The position numbers and the translations under genes were made by a program. Below the pieces are notes generated by a model, which was not told the DNA's origin, did not search any database, and saw only the letters and a list, made by a program, of their open reading frames with translations. From a virus (lineage: Duplodnaviria; Heunggongvirae; Uroviricota; Caudoviricetes), in IMG/VR virus record IMGVR_UViG_2711768052_000009: a stretch of DNA of 35,415 nucleotides, one strand, 5' to 3'. Position 1 is the stretch's first letter, and each line of letters opens with the position of its first letter. Positions 22,893-30,935 of the stretch are shown in pieces.

Positions 22893-24419
22893 TTAGAAAT
22901 AAATCTCACCATCAACCATATATTTGAGAGCACTTATCGCCTGCTGGGCGGATATTACTTTCATTAAAGGATAGTGTTTAAAAACAATGCCATTCATAAA
23001 ATAGATATCACAGGTTTTATTATCCGTATTAATTATGATTTTTTCGAATGTTTTATAGGCAAGTGTACGGCATAACTCTCGTCCATTTTTACTGGTTAAG
23101 TCAATAGCATAAAAATCACTGAATGAATTTACACCTTTACTCTTCAAAGTTTTCAATGATACCGAAGCCCTTCGTAATTCCTTATCTAATAGTCTTATTT
23201 TCTCTGCTATAGCGGTAACTTCAGGCGCGACAGACAATGCAACGATTAAATTATTAATTTTCATCTGAAGCTCAATAATTTTTAACTCTAAAGTTTCATT
23301 AGCATCTTTCTTGTTTTCAACTGGTTGAATTTTGCTACAATTAAAAAGCAATTCATTAATGATATTATAATCAACCAAATCTCTTTTTATTGATGGCCTG
23401 TCACATCGATGTAATCTTCTCATCGGACAAACATAATAGCCATGCAAACTTCCAGATACCGCATGAACAATCATGGTATTACCACAAGCCTCACACTTCA
23501 TAACTGTTCGAAGTAGATTTATTAGCATAGGATTCTTGCTACTATTGCTAATACCAAAAGGTGCCAACCGAATTTCCTGTACAGCGTAAAACAAATCATC
23601 TGATATGACTCTGGGATAATAGCCAGCGATTTCACTTATCCCTTTCCCTCTTGCACGATATGAAGGTACGCATATACCTATCAGAGCTTTATTCGCTAAT
23701 AATTTTTCAATTACAGAAGGTCCCCATGCACTTTCTTTTCCTGAGAAATTCTTTACAGCATGATCATTTAAATACTTGGCTATTGCATTCAATGAGCGCC
23801 TTTCCATCCTGAGTTTAAAAATTAGCTCAATAGTTTTCACCCTGTCGGGGTCTGGAACAAAAGCCGTTCTTTTGTCATCTAAGGAGAGCCATCTCGGACA
23901 AGACGCCGTCATAATCGTACCTGATTCCAGTGCATCCTGCCGTTTTTTCTTCCATGATAATTTAACCCGACTTGACTTTATCTCGCTTTCTTCATTTGCC
24001 CTTTGTGCTATAAGTATGGCTTTTATTAATGAATATGGCTCATTCAAAGAGTCAATATTATAGACTGTATTGTCGCAAAGAGTTATAACATCAATACCGT
24101 GATTCAAAATCAATTTCAGACGTTCAATCGCTTCACCGACTTTTTCTCTTGAAAGTCTGTCCAGACTTTCAACTAACAATGTAGTTCCTGGCAATATATA
24201 ACCATGCTCTATAGCATCTAAAAATTCCGAAAAAGCTCCTGATTGTGCATGCTTTCCTTTGAATGCACTTAATCCTAAATCTTCATATGTTATGGTATCA
24301 AGATAATAATCACTATTTACCTTTAACCATTCAGCAATAAGTCTTCTCTGTCGGTTTAATGAGTCGCCAGACATCTGACCTGGTGATGAAAATCGCATAT
24401 ATGCTATGGCTTTTTTCAT
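22893..24419 (-). CDS. ybcK: Large serine recombinase (resolvase/invertase N-terminal catalytic domain, recombinase domain, zinc ribbon; YbcK-like)
   Basis: 508 aa; N-terminal AIAYMRFSSPGQ with candidate catalytic Ser; Cys cluster CEACGN...CPMRRLHRCD; AT-rich. Confidence 0.85.
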   Translation of the reverse strand: MKKAIAYMRFSSPGQMSGDSLNRQRRLIAEWLKVNSDYYLDTITYEDLGLSAFKGKHAQSGAFSEFLDAIEHGYILPGTTLLVESLDRLSREKVGEAIERLKLILNHGIDVITLCDNTVYNIDSLNEPYSLIKAILIAQRANEESEIKSSRVKLSWKKKRQDALESGTIMTASCPRWLSLDDKRTAFVPDPDRVKTIELIFKLRMERRSLNAIAKYLNDHAVKNFSGKESAWGPSVIEKLLANKALIGICVPSYRARGKGISEIAGYYPRVISDDLFYAVQEIRLAPFGISNSSKNPMLINLLRTVMKCEACGNTMIVHAVSGSLHGYYVCPMRRLHRCDRPSIKRDLVDYNIINELLFNCSKIQPVENKKDANETLELKIIELQMKINNLIVALSVAPEVTAIAEKIRLLDKELRRASVSLKTLKSKGVNSFSDFYAIDLTSKNGRELCRTLAYKTFEKIIINTDNKTCDIYFMNGIVFKHYPLMKVISAQQAISALKYMVDGEIYF

Positions 24420-24599
24420 GGTGACACCTGCTAACGTATGCTTTTATAAACCTTAGTGGTGGGATATAATTTTTGTTTAATTTTTATTTAAAAAGACAAT
24501 TAAGGTCACATTATCTTGAATATACAACAATAATCGTATTGCAATTTTCTTACGCCATAATCTTGAAAGCACAAAAGAATACATAAAAAATAAAGACAT

Positions 24600-24643
24600 T
24601 AACAAAAAGCATAAAACGAGGCTCATATAAATATAAGAGCCTC
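24600..24643 (-). terminator. Rho-independent terminator downstream of emrE
   Basis: GAGGCTC...GAGCCTC 7-bp inverted repeat (24618-24643) followed on the minus strand by GTTTTATGCTTTTTGTT. Confidence 0.55.
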
Positions 24644-24673
24644 CATATTTTAGTCGTTTAGAAACAAATTATT

Positions 24674-25006
24674 TTAATGTGGTGTGCTTCGTGACAATAA
24701 ATTAATAACCAACACACCGGCACAAATCAACATCATGCCTATAATGGCTGGCAGGTCCAGCCGTTGGCCGAAAAATCCCCATGACAGTAAGCTAATCAGG
24801 ACAATACCGACTCCTGACCAGATAGCATAAGCAATCCCTGTAGGAATATAAGCCAGCGTCTGAGCTAATAACCAGAATGATGCACAATAACAAATAATTG
24901 TACCAACAGATGGCCATAACCGTGTAAAACCTTCTGAAAACTTCATTAAGGTTGTACCAATGACCTCTGCAAGTATTGCACCACCAAGATAAATATAAGG
25001 GTTCAT
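24674..25006 (-). CDS. emrE: SMR-family multidrug efflux transporter EmrE
   Basis: 110 aa from ATG 25004-25006: MNPYIYLGGAILAEVIGTTLMKFSEGFTRLWPSVGTIICYCASFWLLAQTLAYIPTGIAYAIWSGVGIVLISLLSWGFFGQRLDLPAIIGMMLICAGVLVINLLSRSTPH; four TM helices with the conserved Glu in TM1. Confidence 0.92.
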   Translation of the reverse strand: MNPYIYLGGAILAEVIGTTLMKFSEGFTRLWPSVGTIICYCASFWLLAQTLAYIPTGIAYAIWSGVGIVLISLLSWGFFGQRLDLPAIIGMMLICAGVLVINLLSRSTPH

Positions 25007-25073
25007 AGCATATTCTTTCCTGTTCAAACTGGAGAGAATTGTACTACAGTTTGAACTCAACTCACCTGTTTCA

Positions 25074-25376
25074 TCATTGTGTTCCCATTGATGTTCTTTT
25101 ATATACCCTCAGTACCCGTTTCATCGCGGCACTCTGGCGACACTCCTTAAAAATCAGATTCGTGCTCACCTTTCCTTCCCGTTCTTCTCTGGTAGCGAAC
25201 CGGTAATACACCGTTCGCCAGACCTTACCATCAACGACCAGGATTCCTGCCCGCGCCATTTTAGCCGCAGCCTGATTTATGCTGGTTACGGTTGCGCCTG
25301 TTACCGCGGCAACGTCCTGTGCACAGAAGCTCTTATGCGTCCCCAGGTAATGAATAATTGCCTCTTTGCCCGTCAT
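25074..25376 (-). CDS. ren: Ren protein (confers resistance to Rex exclusion in lambda)
   Basis: 100 aa, MTGKEAIIHYLGTHKSFCAQDVAAVTGATVTSINQAAAKMARAGILVVDGKVWRTVYYRFATREEREGK...; matches lambda Ren; start overlaps the P stop. Confidence 0.88.
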   Translation of the reverse strand: MTGKEAIIHYLGTHKSFCAQDVAAVTGATVTSINQAAAKMARAGILVVDGKVWRTVYYRFATREEREGKVSTNLIFKECRQSAAMKRVLRVYKRTSMGTQ

Positions 25377-27656: not shown

Positions 27657-27884
27657 TTAGGCGGCAGAATTACTCGCGTTAAACAATGGTGCAAGGTCGG
27701 GACGAATATCTGCTGGTTTAATCTTTCCACCAGTGGCTGAGACAATTTTCATTACATAGCGGGCATCAATTCCGCCACCGTGTAGCCAACGCCAAACAGT
27801 GGGCTGGGCTACACCGCATAGATCTGCCAGTCGTTTTTGACTACCTGTAATACTGATTGCGAGTTGAATGGTTTGATTTGTCAT
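27657..27884 (-). CDS. cro: Cro-like HTH repressor (YdaS/Cro family)
   Basis: 75 aa from ATG 27882-27884: MTNQTIQLAISITGSQKRLADLCGVAQPTVWRWLHGGGIDARYVMKIVSATGGKIKPADIRPDL; HTH at QKRLADLCGVAQPTVWRW; divergent from cI across the operator region. The track start is TTG two codons upstream. Confidence 0.75.
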   Translation of the reverse strand: MTNQTIQLAISITGSQKRLADLCGVAQPTVWRWLHGGGIDARYVMKIVSATGGKIKPADIRPDLAPLFNASNSAA

Positions 27885-27994
27885 TATCAATTCCTATTGG
27901 TATTACAATGAATGGATAATAGCAATGCGTATTAACCCAATCAATAGCAAAACGTGTTTTGACCATCAATACGCAAGCGTATAAATTAAAACTT
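27885..27994. promoter_or_regulatory. Immunity control region: divergent PR (to cro) and PRM (to cI) with candidate OR operator repeats
   Basis: Minus strand: -35 TTGATT (27939-27944) / 17 bp / -10 TATTAT (27916-27921) for cro. Plus strand: -35 TTGACC (27959-27964) / 15-16 bp / TATAAAT (27980-27986) ending 8 nt before the cI ATG. Motif AATAGCAA at 27918-27925 and 27943-27950 (25-bp spacing). Confidence 0.6.
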
Positions 27995-28687
27995 ATGAAA
28001 AAAGAAACTCTTGCTGATCGCTTAAACCTAGCGATGGAACAATCTGGAATGTCTCAAGGCGCTCTTGCAAAGGCGTCTGGCGTAGCTCAACCCACAATCT
28101 GGAGACTGACAAGCGGCAACGCACGCGGCTCAACAAAAATTGTTGAAATAGCTAATGCATTGGGTGTTCGAACAGAGTGGCTCTCATCAGGCATAGGCCC
28201 GATGAGAAATGACGGTCAACAATCAGGGAAGCCTGCTGCCAACCATCCCAAATACTTCAAGATTGACGTTCTTGATATAGAAGTGAGTGCCGGGCCGGGA
28301 GTCATCAACCGTGAGTTTGTAGAAGTTCTACGCTCGGTTGAGTACTCGTTTGACGATGCTCGTCACATGTTCGATGGCAGGAAGGCGGAAAATATCCGTA
28401 TCATTAACGTACGCGGTGACAGCATGTCAGGAACGATCGAACCAGGTGATCTGCTGTTCGTTGATATCACGGTTAAATCTTTCGACGGTGATGGTATCTA
28501 TGCGTTTCTGTACGACGACACAGCCCATGTAAAGCGCCTGCAAATGATGAAGGATAAACTGCTGGTTATCTCTGATAACAAGAGCTACTCACCGTGGGAC
28601 CCAATCGAGAAAGACGAGATGAACCGGGTATTCATCTTCGGGAAAGTCATCGGGAGCATGCCGCAGACGTATAGGAAGCATGGATAA
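27995..28687 (+). CDS. cI: CI-type prophage repressor (N-terminal XRE HTH plus C-terminal S24 LexA-like autopeptidase)
   Basis: 230 aa from ATG 27995: MKKETLADRLNLAMEQSGMSQGALAKASGVAQPTIWRL...; Ala-Gly cleavage-site candidate in VSAGPG; S24 motifs GDSMSGTIEPGDLLFVD and HVKRL (Ser/Lys dyad). The track ORF starts at an upstream TTG. Confidence 0.85.
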   Translation: MKKETLADRLNLAMEQSGMSQGALAKASGVAQPTIWRLTSGNARGSTKIVEIANALGVRTEWLSSGIGPMRNDGQQSGKPAANHPKYFKIDVLDIEVSAGPGVINREFVEVLRSVEYSFDDARHMFDGRKAENIRIINVRGDSMSGTIEPGDLLFVDITVKSFDGDGIYAFLYDDTAHVKRLQMMKDKLLVISDNKSYSPWDPIEKDEMNRVFIFGKVIGSMPQTYRKHG

Positions 28688-28782: not shown

Positions 28783-29508
28783 ATGGAAGAACGTGGGAAT
28801 TACCTAATAGAACCCCTAGAAGTAATTGGTTCTGGCGGTTTTGGCCTTGTAGAAAAAATAAGGTTATATAACTCACAAAGAAAAATTTGTGGTCTATATG
28901 CCAGAAAAATTTTACGACCTGATGCAACAGATCCTGAACTCTTTACCAGATTTGAACGAGAAGTAAGATATCAAACTGAATGCCTGCATACTAATATTGT
29001 CCAAATATTCATATGCCACTTACAGAATGCTCAGCCTTGGTTCGTAATGGAACTAGCAGAAACAAATCTTGAAGAAGAAATAAAAAGTGGAACTCTTACA
29101 AAGGCTGAAAAAATCTCTATTGTAAAAATGGTACTAAATGCCGTCGGATGGATTCATAAGAAAGGATATCTTCATCGGGATATAAAACCACTAAATGTAC
29201 TAAAATTTAAAGATGGAATTTATAAGTTATCTGACTTCGGCCTTGCAAAAAATGTGTCACCAGATGCCAATACACAGCTATTAACACAAATTGGCCAATA
29301 CCCCGCTACTCCTAAATACTTTGATTACAACGTTTTCCTCAACGGATATTCAAAACAATCAGATATATATTCAATTGGTATTTTAATTGAAGAATTAAAT
29401 ATTGATGGTTTTGATGATATAATAAACAAATGTACGCATAGACAACTTAACAAAAGATTCCTGACCGTAGAGCAGATCTTTGAGGAATTGGAGTTGAAAC
29501 GCTTATGA
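28783..29508 (+). CDS. Hanks-type (eukaryotic-like) Ser/Thr protein kinase, minimal catalytic domain only (241 aa)
   Basis: ATG 28783 with AGGA RBS; Gly loop IGSGGFGLV (res 15-23); beta3 Lys in YARK (res 40-43); catalytic loop HRDIKPLN (res 131-138, nt 29173-29196); DFG in LSDFGLAK (res 150-152); APE-like ATPKY; DIYSIG (subdomain IX). No TM or sensor domains. AT-rich. Confidence 0.85.
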   Translation: MEERGNYLIEPLEVIGSGGFGLVEKIRLYNSQRKICGLYARKILRPDATDPELFTRFEREVRYQTECLHTNIVQIFICHLQNAQPWFVMELAETNLEEEIKSGTLTKAEKISIVKMVLNAVGWIHKKGYLHRDIKPLNVLKFKDGIYKLSDFGLAKNVSPDANTQLLTQIGQYPATPKYFDYNVFLNGYSKQSDIYSIGILIEELNIDGFDDIINKCTHRQLNKRFLTVEQIFEELELKRL

Positions 29509-30248
29509 TTAGCATACTCTCATCATCCATATTTTCTGTACCAAAACATAATGGCAGGGAAAATCAAGATAGCGTGCTTTATCCACTTCAAACACCAAAT
29601 GGTTATCTTATGGCTATAGCTGATGGGGTTGGTGGTTATAAAGGAGGAAAAGAAGCATCTGCAGCAGTAATAAATCATTTGTATAGTATTAAAGACAGCT
29701 TCACTCATGAAGACAATGTCTTATCCTTACTTAAGACCCTACAAGAAAAGGTGGCATCTCTTTCGTCAGTTGATAAAGAATTAGCATCTGCTGCTACAAC
29801 TTTAACAATGTGCCTACTTCACAATCAAGGTCTAACAATTATACATGTAGGTGACTGTCGTGTTTATTTAAAAAATGGAAATAAGCTAATCCAATTAACA
29901 ACAGATCATACTCAACATCAAATGTTGATAGATAGCGGTATTTATACAGCTCGACAGCTCAAAAATGCAAAAGGTAAAAATATTATTACAACTGCACTTG
30001 CTGCCAAGATCCCCCTTCAACATCAAGTCATAAATATTGATAAAGATGAACTTCCTCTTGACGATGGTGTTCTATCTCTATTCATCATGTCTGATGGCGC
30101 GCATACCTTTTGGGAGCAACGCCCACGATTTTCTTACCGTACATTGTCAACCGCATCAAGGTTTGCCTCCAGCCTAATGCGAAGAATAGAGACAAAAGGC
30201 CCGACTGACGATTATTCTCTTATAGCGGTAAATGTAAAGTATTTGTAA
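29505..30248 (+). CDS. PP2C/PPM-family Ser/Thr protein phosphatase (247 aa)
   Basis: ATG 29505 overlapping the kinase stop (ATGA); PPM motifs IADGVGGYKGG, HVGDCRVY (GDSR-type), TTDHT, FIMSDGA; compact bacterial PP2C size. Confidence 0.8.
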   Translation: MISILSSSIFSVPKHNGRENQDSVLYPLQTPNGYLMAIADGVGGYKGGKEASAAVINHLYSIKDSFTHEDNVLSLLKTLQEKVASLSSVDKELASAATTLTMCLLHNQGLTIIHVGDCRVYLKNGNKLIQLTTDHTQHQMLIDSGIYTARQLKNAKGKNIITTALAAKIPLQHQVINIDKDELPLDDGVLSLFIMSDGAHTFWEQRPRFSYRTLSTASRFASSLMRRIETKGPTDDYSLIAVNVKYL

Positions 30249-30253
30249 ACTTC

Positions 30254-30280
30254 CCGGCCACCGTGCCGGGTTTTCTTTTA
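30254..30280 (+). terminator. Rho-independent terminator ending the cI-kinase-phosphatase transcript (tImm-like)
   Basis: CCCGGCcaccgtGCCGGG hairpin followed by TTTTCTTTT, 6 nt after the phosphatase stop. Confidence 0.8.
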
Positions 30281-30404
30281 TCCCCTCCCCTCATCACATA
30301 TACCGTTCAAAAAACCACCACAATCTCCCTTCAGTTATCGCTATGCGATGCAAGTCACAAAATTAATTCTTTTTGCTATCAAACAGTTAATATCAAAACA
30401 CATC

Positions 30405-30455
30405 AATCAATAGCAATAAGTATTGATACCGCCAATAGCAATAGCTATTATTACC
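30405..30455 (+). promoter_or_regulatory. Candidate PL promoter with OL operator repeats
   Basis: -35 TTGATA (30423-30428) / 17-bp spacer / -10 TATTAT (30446-30451), oriented toward the downstream ORF and gam-bet-exo; CAATAGCAA at 30408-30416 and 30433-30441 (25-bp spacing), the same motif and spacing as at OR. Confidence 0.6.
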
Positions 30456-30644
30456 ATGTCGCAACAACACAACGATACGGCAACCGCCTGATTCACCGTT
30501 GCGATGACCGCTTAGATCCGCAGCTTGAATTTCGGCAGGCTCCGGGGAGTGCGAGGGGTGAAACGGACGCGTGAACGTCGGTGTGACCAGCTGAAATCAA
30601 CTCAACACCTCATACCTCAGTCGCTTCAACGAGGCGGCTTAGTT

Positions 30645-30935
30645 ATGACAACCGGCGGCCATCCACCGCCTGAATACGCGCAGAAGTCTCTATATGTTCA
30701 GCAGCCCAGCTTACGGGCAGGAGTTTTTATGGTTCATCAACATTATGGAACGCAGACCGTTAATCGAGGTGCGGTCATGCCAGGAATGCTGGTCAAACAC
30801 AAAGATGGTACCTGGACTGCATCAGCTAATTTACGCGGACGGCTTTATCTGCATCGCGGCATCGAGCGCACTTATACCCGTGATTTGCTCGTGGAAGTTT
30901 TTCTCGACGGACGCGGTAACGGCCTGAATCACTAA
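30645..30935 (+). CDS. Hypothetical protein, first gene of the PL operon (occupies the N/kil position); possible upstream GTG start at 30558
   Basis: ATG at 30645 gives 96 aa ([48 protein letters not shown]...); the frame is open upstream, and GTG 30558 (GGGGAG SD 8 nt upstream) would add an Arg-rich segment VKRTRERRCDQLKS. No family recognised. Confidence 0.5.

Follow-up and report, generated by a model that had tools for sequence, protein, structure and literature searches.

Which protein controls the promoter that stands between the repressor operon and the recombination genes of a lambdoid prophage, and does the same protein act at the opposite early promoter? The question is raised by positions 30405-30455 of IMG/VR record IMGVR_UViG_2711768052_000009, a 35,415-nucleotide (nt) stretch of Caudoviricetes DNA that is called the window throughout. 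It had been proposed (the original prediction) that an early promoter is overlapped here by two copies of a 9-base pair (bp) repeat, and that the same motif and spacing at both early promoters would fit two operator sets bound by one repressor. The present analysis indicates that the segment is very probably the core of the left operator (OL) and left promoter (pL) of an intact-looking, DLP12/Bievrevirus-type lambdoid prophage of Escherichia coli. The kind of element is textbook, known as OL/PL from lambda, 434 and P22, and the textbook picture is unchanged; the window is oriented in reverse of the lambda map.

Operators and promoter at OL

The elements on which the proposal was built can be read from the sequence where they had been placed. 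The 9-mer CAATAGCAA stands at 30408-30416 and 30433-30441, 25 bp from start to start, and TTGATA (30423-30428) is separated from TATTAT (30446-30451) by a 17-bp spacer (30429-30445). What did not hold is the length of the repeated unit: instead of 9 bp, the repeat search gives 18-23 bp, and at OL it returns two 23-nt copies that are 83% identical and lie 25 bp apart. The real unit appears to be an 18-bp dyad operator of the form YAATASS-N4-SSTATTR, of which the 9-mer makes up one half-site and two central bases. The features of the locus are the following.

30408-30425: OL2, the promoter-distal 18-bp operator CAATAGC-AATA-AGTATTG, 16.1 bits on a matrix derived from the right operator (OR)
30433-30450: OL1, the promoter-proximal 18-bp operator CAATAGC-AATA-GCTATTA, the most symmetric one, 18.7 bits on the same matrix
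30423-30428, plus strand: -35 hexamer of pL, TTGATA, from the promoter scan, kept in four lineages
30446-30451, plus strand: -10 hexamer of pL, TATTAT, from the promoter scan, TATTAT or TATTGT in relatives
30456-30458, plus strand: predicted transcription start, A30456 or G30458, placed by its distance to the -10 hexamer

The last 3 bp of OL2 are the TTG of the -35 hexamer, and OL1 covers the spacer and five of the six bp of the -10 hexamer (TATTA). The promoter TTGATA-17-TATTAT scores 10/12 against the sigma-70 consensus. Both operators keep their distance from the leader anchor, OL2 at -86 and OL1 at -61, in all 78 homoimmune loci. In one homoimmune locus (L010, IMGVR_UViG_3300028995_000007) a 6-bp duplication, CAATAG, is found within OL1 and lengthens the pL spacer from 17 to 23 bp; it may reflect either a decaying prophage whose pL is inactivated or a slip of the assembly.

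The exact 9-mer occurs three times in the 35.4 kb, counting both strands (27942, 30408 and 30433), where 0.43 occurrences are expected, and none of 100 shuffles reached three. When one mismatch is allowed, the window contains 13 matches against 11.65 expected, which is the chance level, and therefore only the exact or extended match is informative. The original prediction had also drawn attention to a 10-bp palindrome, AATAGCTATT, at 30440-30449. It is indeed perfect, but instead of adjoining the second 9-mer it shares 2 nt with it. As a functional unit of its own the palindrome was rejected: OL1 of the type-B version in the O157:H7 strain MB9-1 (L004) lacks it, as do the two OL sites of the related Klebsiella phage and of the Salmonella phage described below, though the 18-bp register is kept in them. 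It is best regarded as a by-product of the two good half-sites of OL1.

Correspondence between OL and OR

The operator set at the other early promoter comprises three sites, together with the right promoter (pR) and a candidate for the promoter of repressor maintenance (pRM).

27917-27984: OR, three 18-bp operators starting at 27917, 27942 and 27967, 25 bp apart
27916-27944, minus strand: pR, TTGATT-17-TATTAT with TG before the -10 hexamer, from the promoter scan, predicted to drive cro
27959-27987, plus strand: pRM candidate, TTGACC-17-TAAATT, overlapped by OR3

The repeat search at OR returns three 18-nt copies, at 27918, 27943 and 27968, each 25 bp from the next. The claim that motif and spacing recur at OR thus stands, with the correction that one of the two OR copies is TAATAGCAA (27917) and not CAATAGCAA, and with the addition of a third, diverged copy that begins at 27967, again 25 bp further on. 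The register in which OR1 and OR2 overlap the -10 and -35 hexamers of pR is that of OL1 and OL2 at pL. The pRM candidate has its spacer and -10 hexamer covered by OR3, and its predicted start falls at or just before the cI start codon (ATG, 27995). With the candidate ending 8 nt before this codon and no Shine-Dalgarno sequence visible, the cI mRNA is predicted to have little or no leader.

A symmetrised weight matrix was trained on the three OR sites only and run over all 35.4 kb. The best matches outside the training sites were 30433 (18.7 bits), 30408 (16.1 bits) and 27888 (15.9 bits), the next one reaching 13.1 bits, and the best score in shuffled windows averaged 12.7 with a standard deviation of 2.0. 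A comparison of 8-mers gives the same picture: OR and OL of the window have 26 in common against a shuffle maximum of 14, cognate pairs of OR and OL in general have 18-26 (shuffle maximum 10-14), and non-cognate pairs have none.

The match at 27888-27905, CAATTCCTATTGGTATTA, is a fourth operator-like site. It is located in the 5' untranslated region of cro, at a distance of 29 bp from OR1 and beyond the predicted start of pR, and a similar site occupies the same relative position in the Klebsiella phage (L212, at 4394) and in Salmonella phage ST160 (L213, at 4394). No counterpart of it was found downstream of pL.

Natural exchange of the immunity module

The relation between operators and repressor is seen most directly where both have been exchanged by recombination on a common backbone.

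30364-30459 (96 bp), plus strand: immunity-specific mosaic module that holds OL and pL, delimited by comparing the window with the loci L002 and L086-L089

The flanks of this module, GTCACAAAAT and CGCAACAACAC, are common to two immunity types, and the 96 bp between them differ; in the two-flank scan the insert is always 96 bp long. Downstream of cI, it is the only part of the interval up to kil that is swapped between the two types, and its right edge coincides with the predicted transcription start. One case is the E. coli R1 prophage (L002), which shares with the window a single stretch of 98.1% identity running from within cI to past kil. In R1 the conserved stretch begins at cI residue 47, residues 86-230 are 100% identical, and the kinase-phosphatase cargo, the terminator, the 85-bp upstream flank and the leader are the same. 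What differs is the helix-turn-helix (HTH) of cI (SQAAIQKI in R1, AQPTIWRL in the window), cro, OR and exactly 96 bp at OL, which in R1 contain a promoter in the same place and repeats of R1's own OR motif.

The same type-2 module, with other cargo, is present in PhiR47_2, IdasGreatGrand, PhiR26_1 and PhiR5_1. This sister module (R1, the PhiR phages and IdasGreatGrand) shares with the window a backbone of cI residues 47-230, cargo slot, terminator, 85-bp flank, leader and kil-gam-bet-exo, and has its promoter, TTGACG-17-TTAAAT, at the place of pL in the window. However, its OR and OL repeats belong to a AAAACAAC...GTTGTTTT family and have no 8-mer in common with OR or OL of the window.

How strictly operator and repressor types go together was counted in a linkage scan of IMG/VR, for which both conserved flanks served as anchors (120 loci) and the pairing was scored where cI lay on the locus. 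OL of type 1 was accompanied by the type-1 N-terminal domain of cI in 53 of 53 cases and type 2 by type 2 in 52 of 52, with no mixed pair; in a wider tally, in which some contigs were included more than once, 160 and 67 loci were concordant and none was mixed. About 20 different cI-to-OL distances were found for each type, and several classes of nearly identical distance occur in both. An interval that recombines in this way and yields no mismatched pairs is what selection against an unrepressed pL, and hence against kil expression, would produce. A third immunity type on this backbone did not appear in either of two IMG/VR scans.

Among 5426 complete E. coli genomes, this OR and this N-terminal domain of cI are present in 719, including O157:H7 and O55:H7 lineages. 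Of those genomes, 542 have OL of type A and 166 that of type B, together 708. Megablast with the 96-bp OL finds 263 genomes where blastn finds 542, an under-count that arises because single-nucleotide differences in the spacer break the 28-bp words.

Conservation in diverged lineages

Four lineages that carry this specificity can be compared at OL.

E. coli type A (the window): OL2 CAATAGCAATAAGTATTG, inter-site spacer ATACCGC, OL1 CAATAGCAATAGCTATTA, promoter TTGATA-17-TATTAT
E. coli type B (O157:H7 and O55:H7; L004): OL2 CAATACCAATTGCTATTG, spacer ACTACAC, OL1 CAATAGCCATTGCTATTG, promoter TTGACT-17-TATTGT
Klebsiella phage ST11-VIM1phi8.2 (L212): OL2 TAATATCAATACGTATTG, spacer CTATGGT, OL1 TAATACTCATTGCTATTA, promoter TTGCTA-17-TATTAT
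Salmonella P22-like phage ST160 (L213): OL2 TAATAGCAAAACGTATTG, spacer ATATGAA, OL1 TAATACTCAATGCTATTG, promoter TTGATA-17-TATTGT

The prophages of O157:H7 and O55:H7 have the same cI, but the flanks of OL, the inter-site spacer and the early leader are different. In type B of O157:H7, in ST11-VIM1phi8.2 and in ST160 the HTH is identical to that of the window repressor, and in all three the OR sites (three) and OL sites (two) follow each other at intervals of 25 bp and keep their overlap with the -35 and -10 hexamers. In ST160 the site occupies the classical position of pL, since CGCTCTTTAAC (boxA) and the N-like gene 24 follow it. Positions 3 and 5 of the half-site, both A, are invariant in 36 of 36 half-sites from the four lineages; positions 2 and 4 hardly vary, unlike the central 4 bp.

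The same contrast is visible within type A. In 55 distinct haplotypes, variation is concentrated just upstream of OL2, in the 7-bp spacer between the operators and just after the -10 hexamer, and the minor-allele fraction is 0.015 in half-site columns versus 0.075 in neighbouring columns (Mann-Whitney p = 0.0096).

The repressor and Cro

The repressor is a protein of 230 amino acids with a 434-like HTH (recognition helix AQPTIWRL) and an S24 C-terminal domain. Its N-terminal domain matches the 434 repressor in PDB (1r69, 2or1, 1per; E ~1e-5) and its C-terminal domain matches UmuD; the alignment shows the cleavage site A99-G100 and the catalytic residues S143 and K180 to be present. The recombination joint in cI falls directly after the HTH, residue 47 onward being common to both immunity types, and the N-terminal domain therefore belongs to the specificity module.

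The recognition helix of Cro, AQPTVWRW, shares AQPT[I/V]WR with that of cI. In the type-2 pair, SQAAIQKI of cI and SQQAVYKW of Cro share SQxA[I/V]xK, so that the two helices are alike within each immunity type and different between types. Because the helices are nearly identical, Cro probably uses the operators of cI. In lambda, 434 and P22, repressor and Cro share their operators.

Proposed regulation and alternative explanations

The proposal that two operator sets at the two early promoters serve one repressor agrees with every comparative test applied here: the matrix, the swap, the linkage, the 8-mers and the diverged lineages. The regulation suggested by this arrangement is as follows. 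The sigma-70 promoter TTGATA-17-TATTAT would fire rightward, starting at about 30456-30458, into a leader of about 270 nt and then into kil-gam-bet-exo and on to int. In the lysogen, cI dimers would occupy OL1 and OL2, whose centres are 25 bp apart, probably in a cooperative manner, and exclude RNA polymerase from pL; exclusion is expected because the -10 and -35 hexamers begin within the promoter-side half-sites. One repressor would shut both early promoters, since the same operators occur three times at OR and in the same register on pR, and looping between OL and OR might also take place. RecA-stimulated (SOS) self-cleavage of cI would release pL and pR, and in lytic growth Cro would probably bind the same sites.

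It could be argued that the sites serve chiefly or exclusively Cro (YdaS), or another protein encoded in the module, rather than cI, in which case the likeness of OL and OR would reflect early shut-off instead of lysogenic repression. Cro does co-vary with the module just as cI does and has a nearly identical helix, and co-variation alone cannot separate the two proteins. However, the joint in cI lies right after the HTH, which puts the N-terminal domain of cI itself in the specificity module; moreover, kil has to stay silent in a prophage, and no repressor but cI has an induction (S24) domain. This alternative therefore appears very unlikely, and as both proteins share operators in lambda, 434 and P22, binding by Cro is more a complement of repression by cI than a rival to it. 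Even less credence can be given to the idea that OL and OR resemble each other through promoter paralogy only, as duplicated pL and pR cassettes whose repeats have no operator role. The promoter-side half-sites do overlap the -35 and -10 hexamers, and pL and pR share GCTATTAT and TATTGAT, but the promoter-distal half-sites CAATAGC (30408 and 30433) lie outside the hexamers and are nevertheless the most conserved columns. The motif is also found in OR3 at pRM, whose hexamers differ, and half-site positions 3 and 5 are invariant across the four lineages while the centre is variable. Finally, the heteroimmune module has an equally good promoter and entirely different repeats.

Several points weigh against assigning the locus to a cI-controlled OL/pL. 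Promoter-like matches in the region are at chance level (8 found, 8.2 expected), so that the promoter is called from its context and its conservation. OL has only two strong operators, the third being weak and 44 bp away. No more than two immunity types were found on this backbone, which makes the co-variation a two-state contrast, though one replicated across cargo classes. The loci counted for linkage are related and the two markers physically close, so that the counts do not represent independent trials. Of the 719 genomes that have this OR, about 11 were matched by neither OL query. In the literature, no published binding, repression or transcript data were found for this specificity.

The weak third site opens a question of its own, which concerns the sequence upstream of OL2 and not OL1, OL2 or pL.

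30364-30381: conserved element TAATTCTTTTTGCTATCA inside the swapped module, candidate for a weak OL3 or for the site of another factor

This element is 83% complementary to OL2, but only one of its half-sites (TGATAGC) is good, and its score on the OR matrix is under 8 bits. It precedes OL2 by 26 nt in all four lineages (both E. coli types, Salmonella and Klebsiella), and 3 of its 18 columns vary versus 13 of 26 in the next stretch. A match to the binding site of integration host factor (IHF), TATCAAACAGTTA, is located at 30376-30388, and it is a possibility that 30364-30381 serves a factor other than cI instead of being OL3. Stimulation of pL by IHF has been described in lambda. An IHF site at 30364-30388 that stimulates pL would account for the conserved position of the element in four lineages together with its poor operator score, and TATCAAACAGTTA fits WATCAANNNNTTR, as does the Klebsiella version. 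On the other hand, E. coli type B and ST160 lack the TTR part of the IHF consensus, and the location of the element inside the immunity-specific module, with its absence from type 2, fits a repressor site better. The IHF explanation is considered somewhat unlikely.

Genetic setting

The genes and signals around the operators are arranged in the order cI, cargo (to 30248), terminator, promoter on the plus strand, and kil, gam, bet, exo and int.

27657-27884, minus strand: cro, YdaS family by Pfam
27995-28687, plus strand: cI, HTH_3 and Peptidase_S24 by Pfam
28783-29508, plus strand: Ser/Thr kinase, cargo
29505-30248, plus strand: PP2C phosphatase, cargo
30253-30279, plus strand: intrinsic terminator from the terminator scan, CCCGGCCACCGTGCCGGG then TTTTCTTTT
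30458-30728, plus strand: untranslated pL leader of about 270 nt, common to both immunity types
30729-30935, plus strand: kil, first gene of the pL operon, by PHROGs matches and the RefSeq annotation of relatives
From 31011, plus strand: gam (31011), bet (31313), exo (32095), several small open reading frames and int (from 34252)

The promoter had been placed beyond a terminator that follows the phosphatase gene, and the terminator scan finds one there (30253-30279). This terminator is kept in relatives with different cargo; it appears to end the cI-kinase-phosphatase transcription unit, would insulate pL from read-through, and corresponds to tIMM of lambda. The original prediction was also right that the promoter points towards gam-bet-exo, but the first gene it would reach is kil, which precedes them.

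The nearest sequenced phages are Bievrevirus 4A7, Lambda_4C10, 1W, 3W, Perceval and PhiR30_1, with 97% identity on both sides of different cargo. Comparison with 4A7 (L214) suggests that the right arm at 22893-25376 is DLP12-like, with ren, an emrE/qacE-like gene, a ybcK-type recombinase, ybcN, ninE, rusA, ylcG and a Q-like gene. In 4A7, a fragment of isocitrate dehydrogenase beside int suggests integration in icd for that phage.

The cargo slot at 28783-30248 corresponds in position to rexAB of lambda. For its kinase, matches were found to PD-T4-6, Stk2 and mad6, which are families of anti-phage defence (E down to 3e-39), and the kinase-phosphatase pair is present with both immunity types; in relatives the slot holds SIR2, GevT/GevA, HipA/HipD, an ASCH-domain pair or a lipoprotein. 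From the terminator to the swapped OL module runs an 85-bp stretch (30280-30363) that is kept across both immunity types and across cargo types, and is absent from the type-B version of O157:H7; no function is suggested for it.

The leader between pL and kil

No open reading frame was found between pL and kil, and in a codon-position test the leader gives 19/15/18 versus 11/11/24 for kil, which marks it as non-coding. A longer Kil, using the open frame 30525-30935, was rejected by the same test, the part upstream of 30646 being non-coding. In N-dependent left operons of the lambda, P22 and phi80 type, pL is directly followed by a nutL site (boxA and boxB) and an N-family gene. The leader contains no boxA-like match, boxA-like matches in the window as a whole are at chance level, and no N gene is annotated in the related phage 4A7. 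In HK022, a put RNA of about 70 nt with two stems stands just beyond pL, and a second copy beyond pR. An RNA similar in sequence to put of HK022 was likewise rejected, as the sequence similarity search found no similarity to the early region of HK022 and no second copy of the leader in the window. The predicted fold of the leader is no better than that of shuffles (z = +0.57). Rfam, searched with the whole window at the gathering threshold and with 30250-30760 permissively, gave as its best match ALIL, on the minus strand, at 20.8 bits versus a threshold of 50.

The end of the leader, 30646-30728, varies in 7 of 83 columns versus 46 of 207 in kil. The region from about 30620 to 30720 contains three small hairpins, and the part at 30610-30670 is homologous to a segment that closely follows N in phi80 and closely precedes kil in HK225. 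That the leader holds a cis-acting RNA element of an undescribed kind, acting as a processive antiterminator or as a switch on the toxic kil, is considered improbable; if it were true, OL/pL would head a new kind of early-left regulatory unit.

Comparison with known systems

In lambda, operators overlap the starts of the -35 and -10 hexamers and recur three times at OR, the third on pRM, and the cI mRNA is nearly leaderless. The window resembles lambda in that OL/pL faces the recombination genes from beyond the terminator that closes the repressor operon (cI-rexAB in lambda, cI-kinase-phosphatase in the window); in its tandem dyads of about 24-25 bp from centre to centre, whose promoter-side ends form the first bases of the -35 and -10 hexamers; and in the three OR operators, the third on pRM, the distance of about 2.5 kb between OL and OR and the LexA-like self-cleaving C-terminal domain of the repressor. 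It differs in that the operators are 18 bp long instead of 17 bp, the N-terminal domain of cI is 434-like by sequence, only two strong OL sites are present, N, nutL and cIII are lacking, and Cro and cII are of the YdaS and YdaT families. Unlike P22 and phi80, the window has no N gene or nut site downstream of pL, and unlike HK022 it has no recognisable put RNA.

With 434 the window shares the type of HTH and the close relationship between the helices of cI and Cro, as seen in the 434 repressor and Cro. The operators of P22 c2 are also 18 bp long. Both phages are set apart from the window, however, by its helix AQPTIWRL and half-site YAATASS (ACAA in 434).

The closest correspondence is with the ST104-type phages (ST104, SE1 and ST160). 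The HTH of ST160 C2 is identical, with 79% identity over the N-terminal 83 residues, and ST160 agrees with the window in its three OR and two OL operators and in the register at pL. The differences are that boxA and the N-like gene 24 follow pL in ST160, whereas no N system is found here, and that ST160 has a P22-like podovirus backbone whereas that of the window is DLP12/Bievrevirus-type lambdoid. In specificity the window corresponds to the ST104-type repressor, which is listed as a separate predicted type (Villafane et al. 2008, PMC2629481). The literature on the motif, the PhiR phages, GevT/GevA and the operators of ST104 and SE1 yielded no description of this operator.

Implications

The immunity specificity to which the element belongs is widespread in E. 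coli, and the same HTH is found in P22-like phages of Salmonella and in phages of Klebsiella. The two-state natural swap offers a clean example of immunity modules that stay matched across 1-2.6 kb of reshuffled cargo, and the layout of the locus helps to understand how cargo is expressed from the variable, rexAB-like slot that separates cI from pL. The definition of the operator may aid the construction of reporters or inducible switches that are orthogonal to lambda, 434 and P22. Together with the arrangement of pL, pR and pRM, the consensus YAATASS-N4-SSTATTR lets superinfection immunity groups be predicted.

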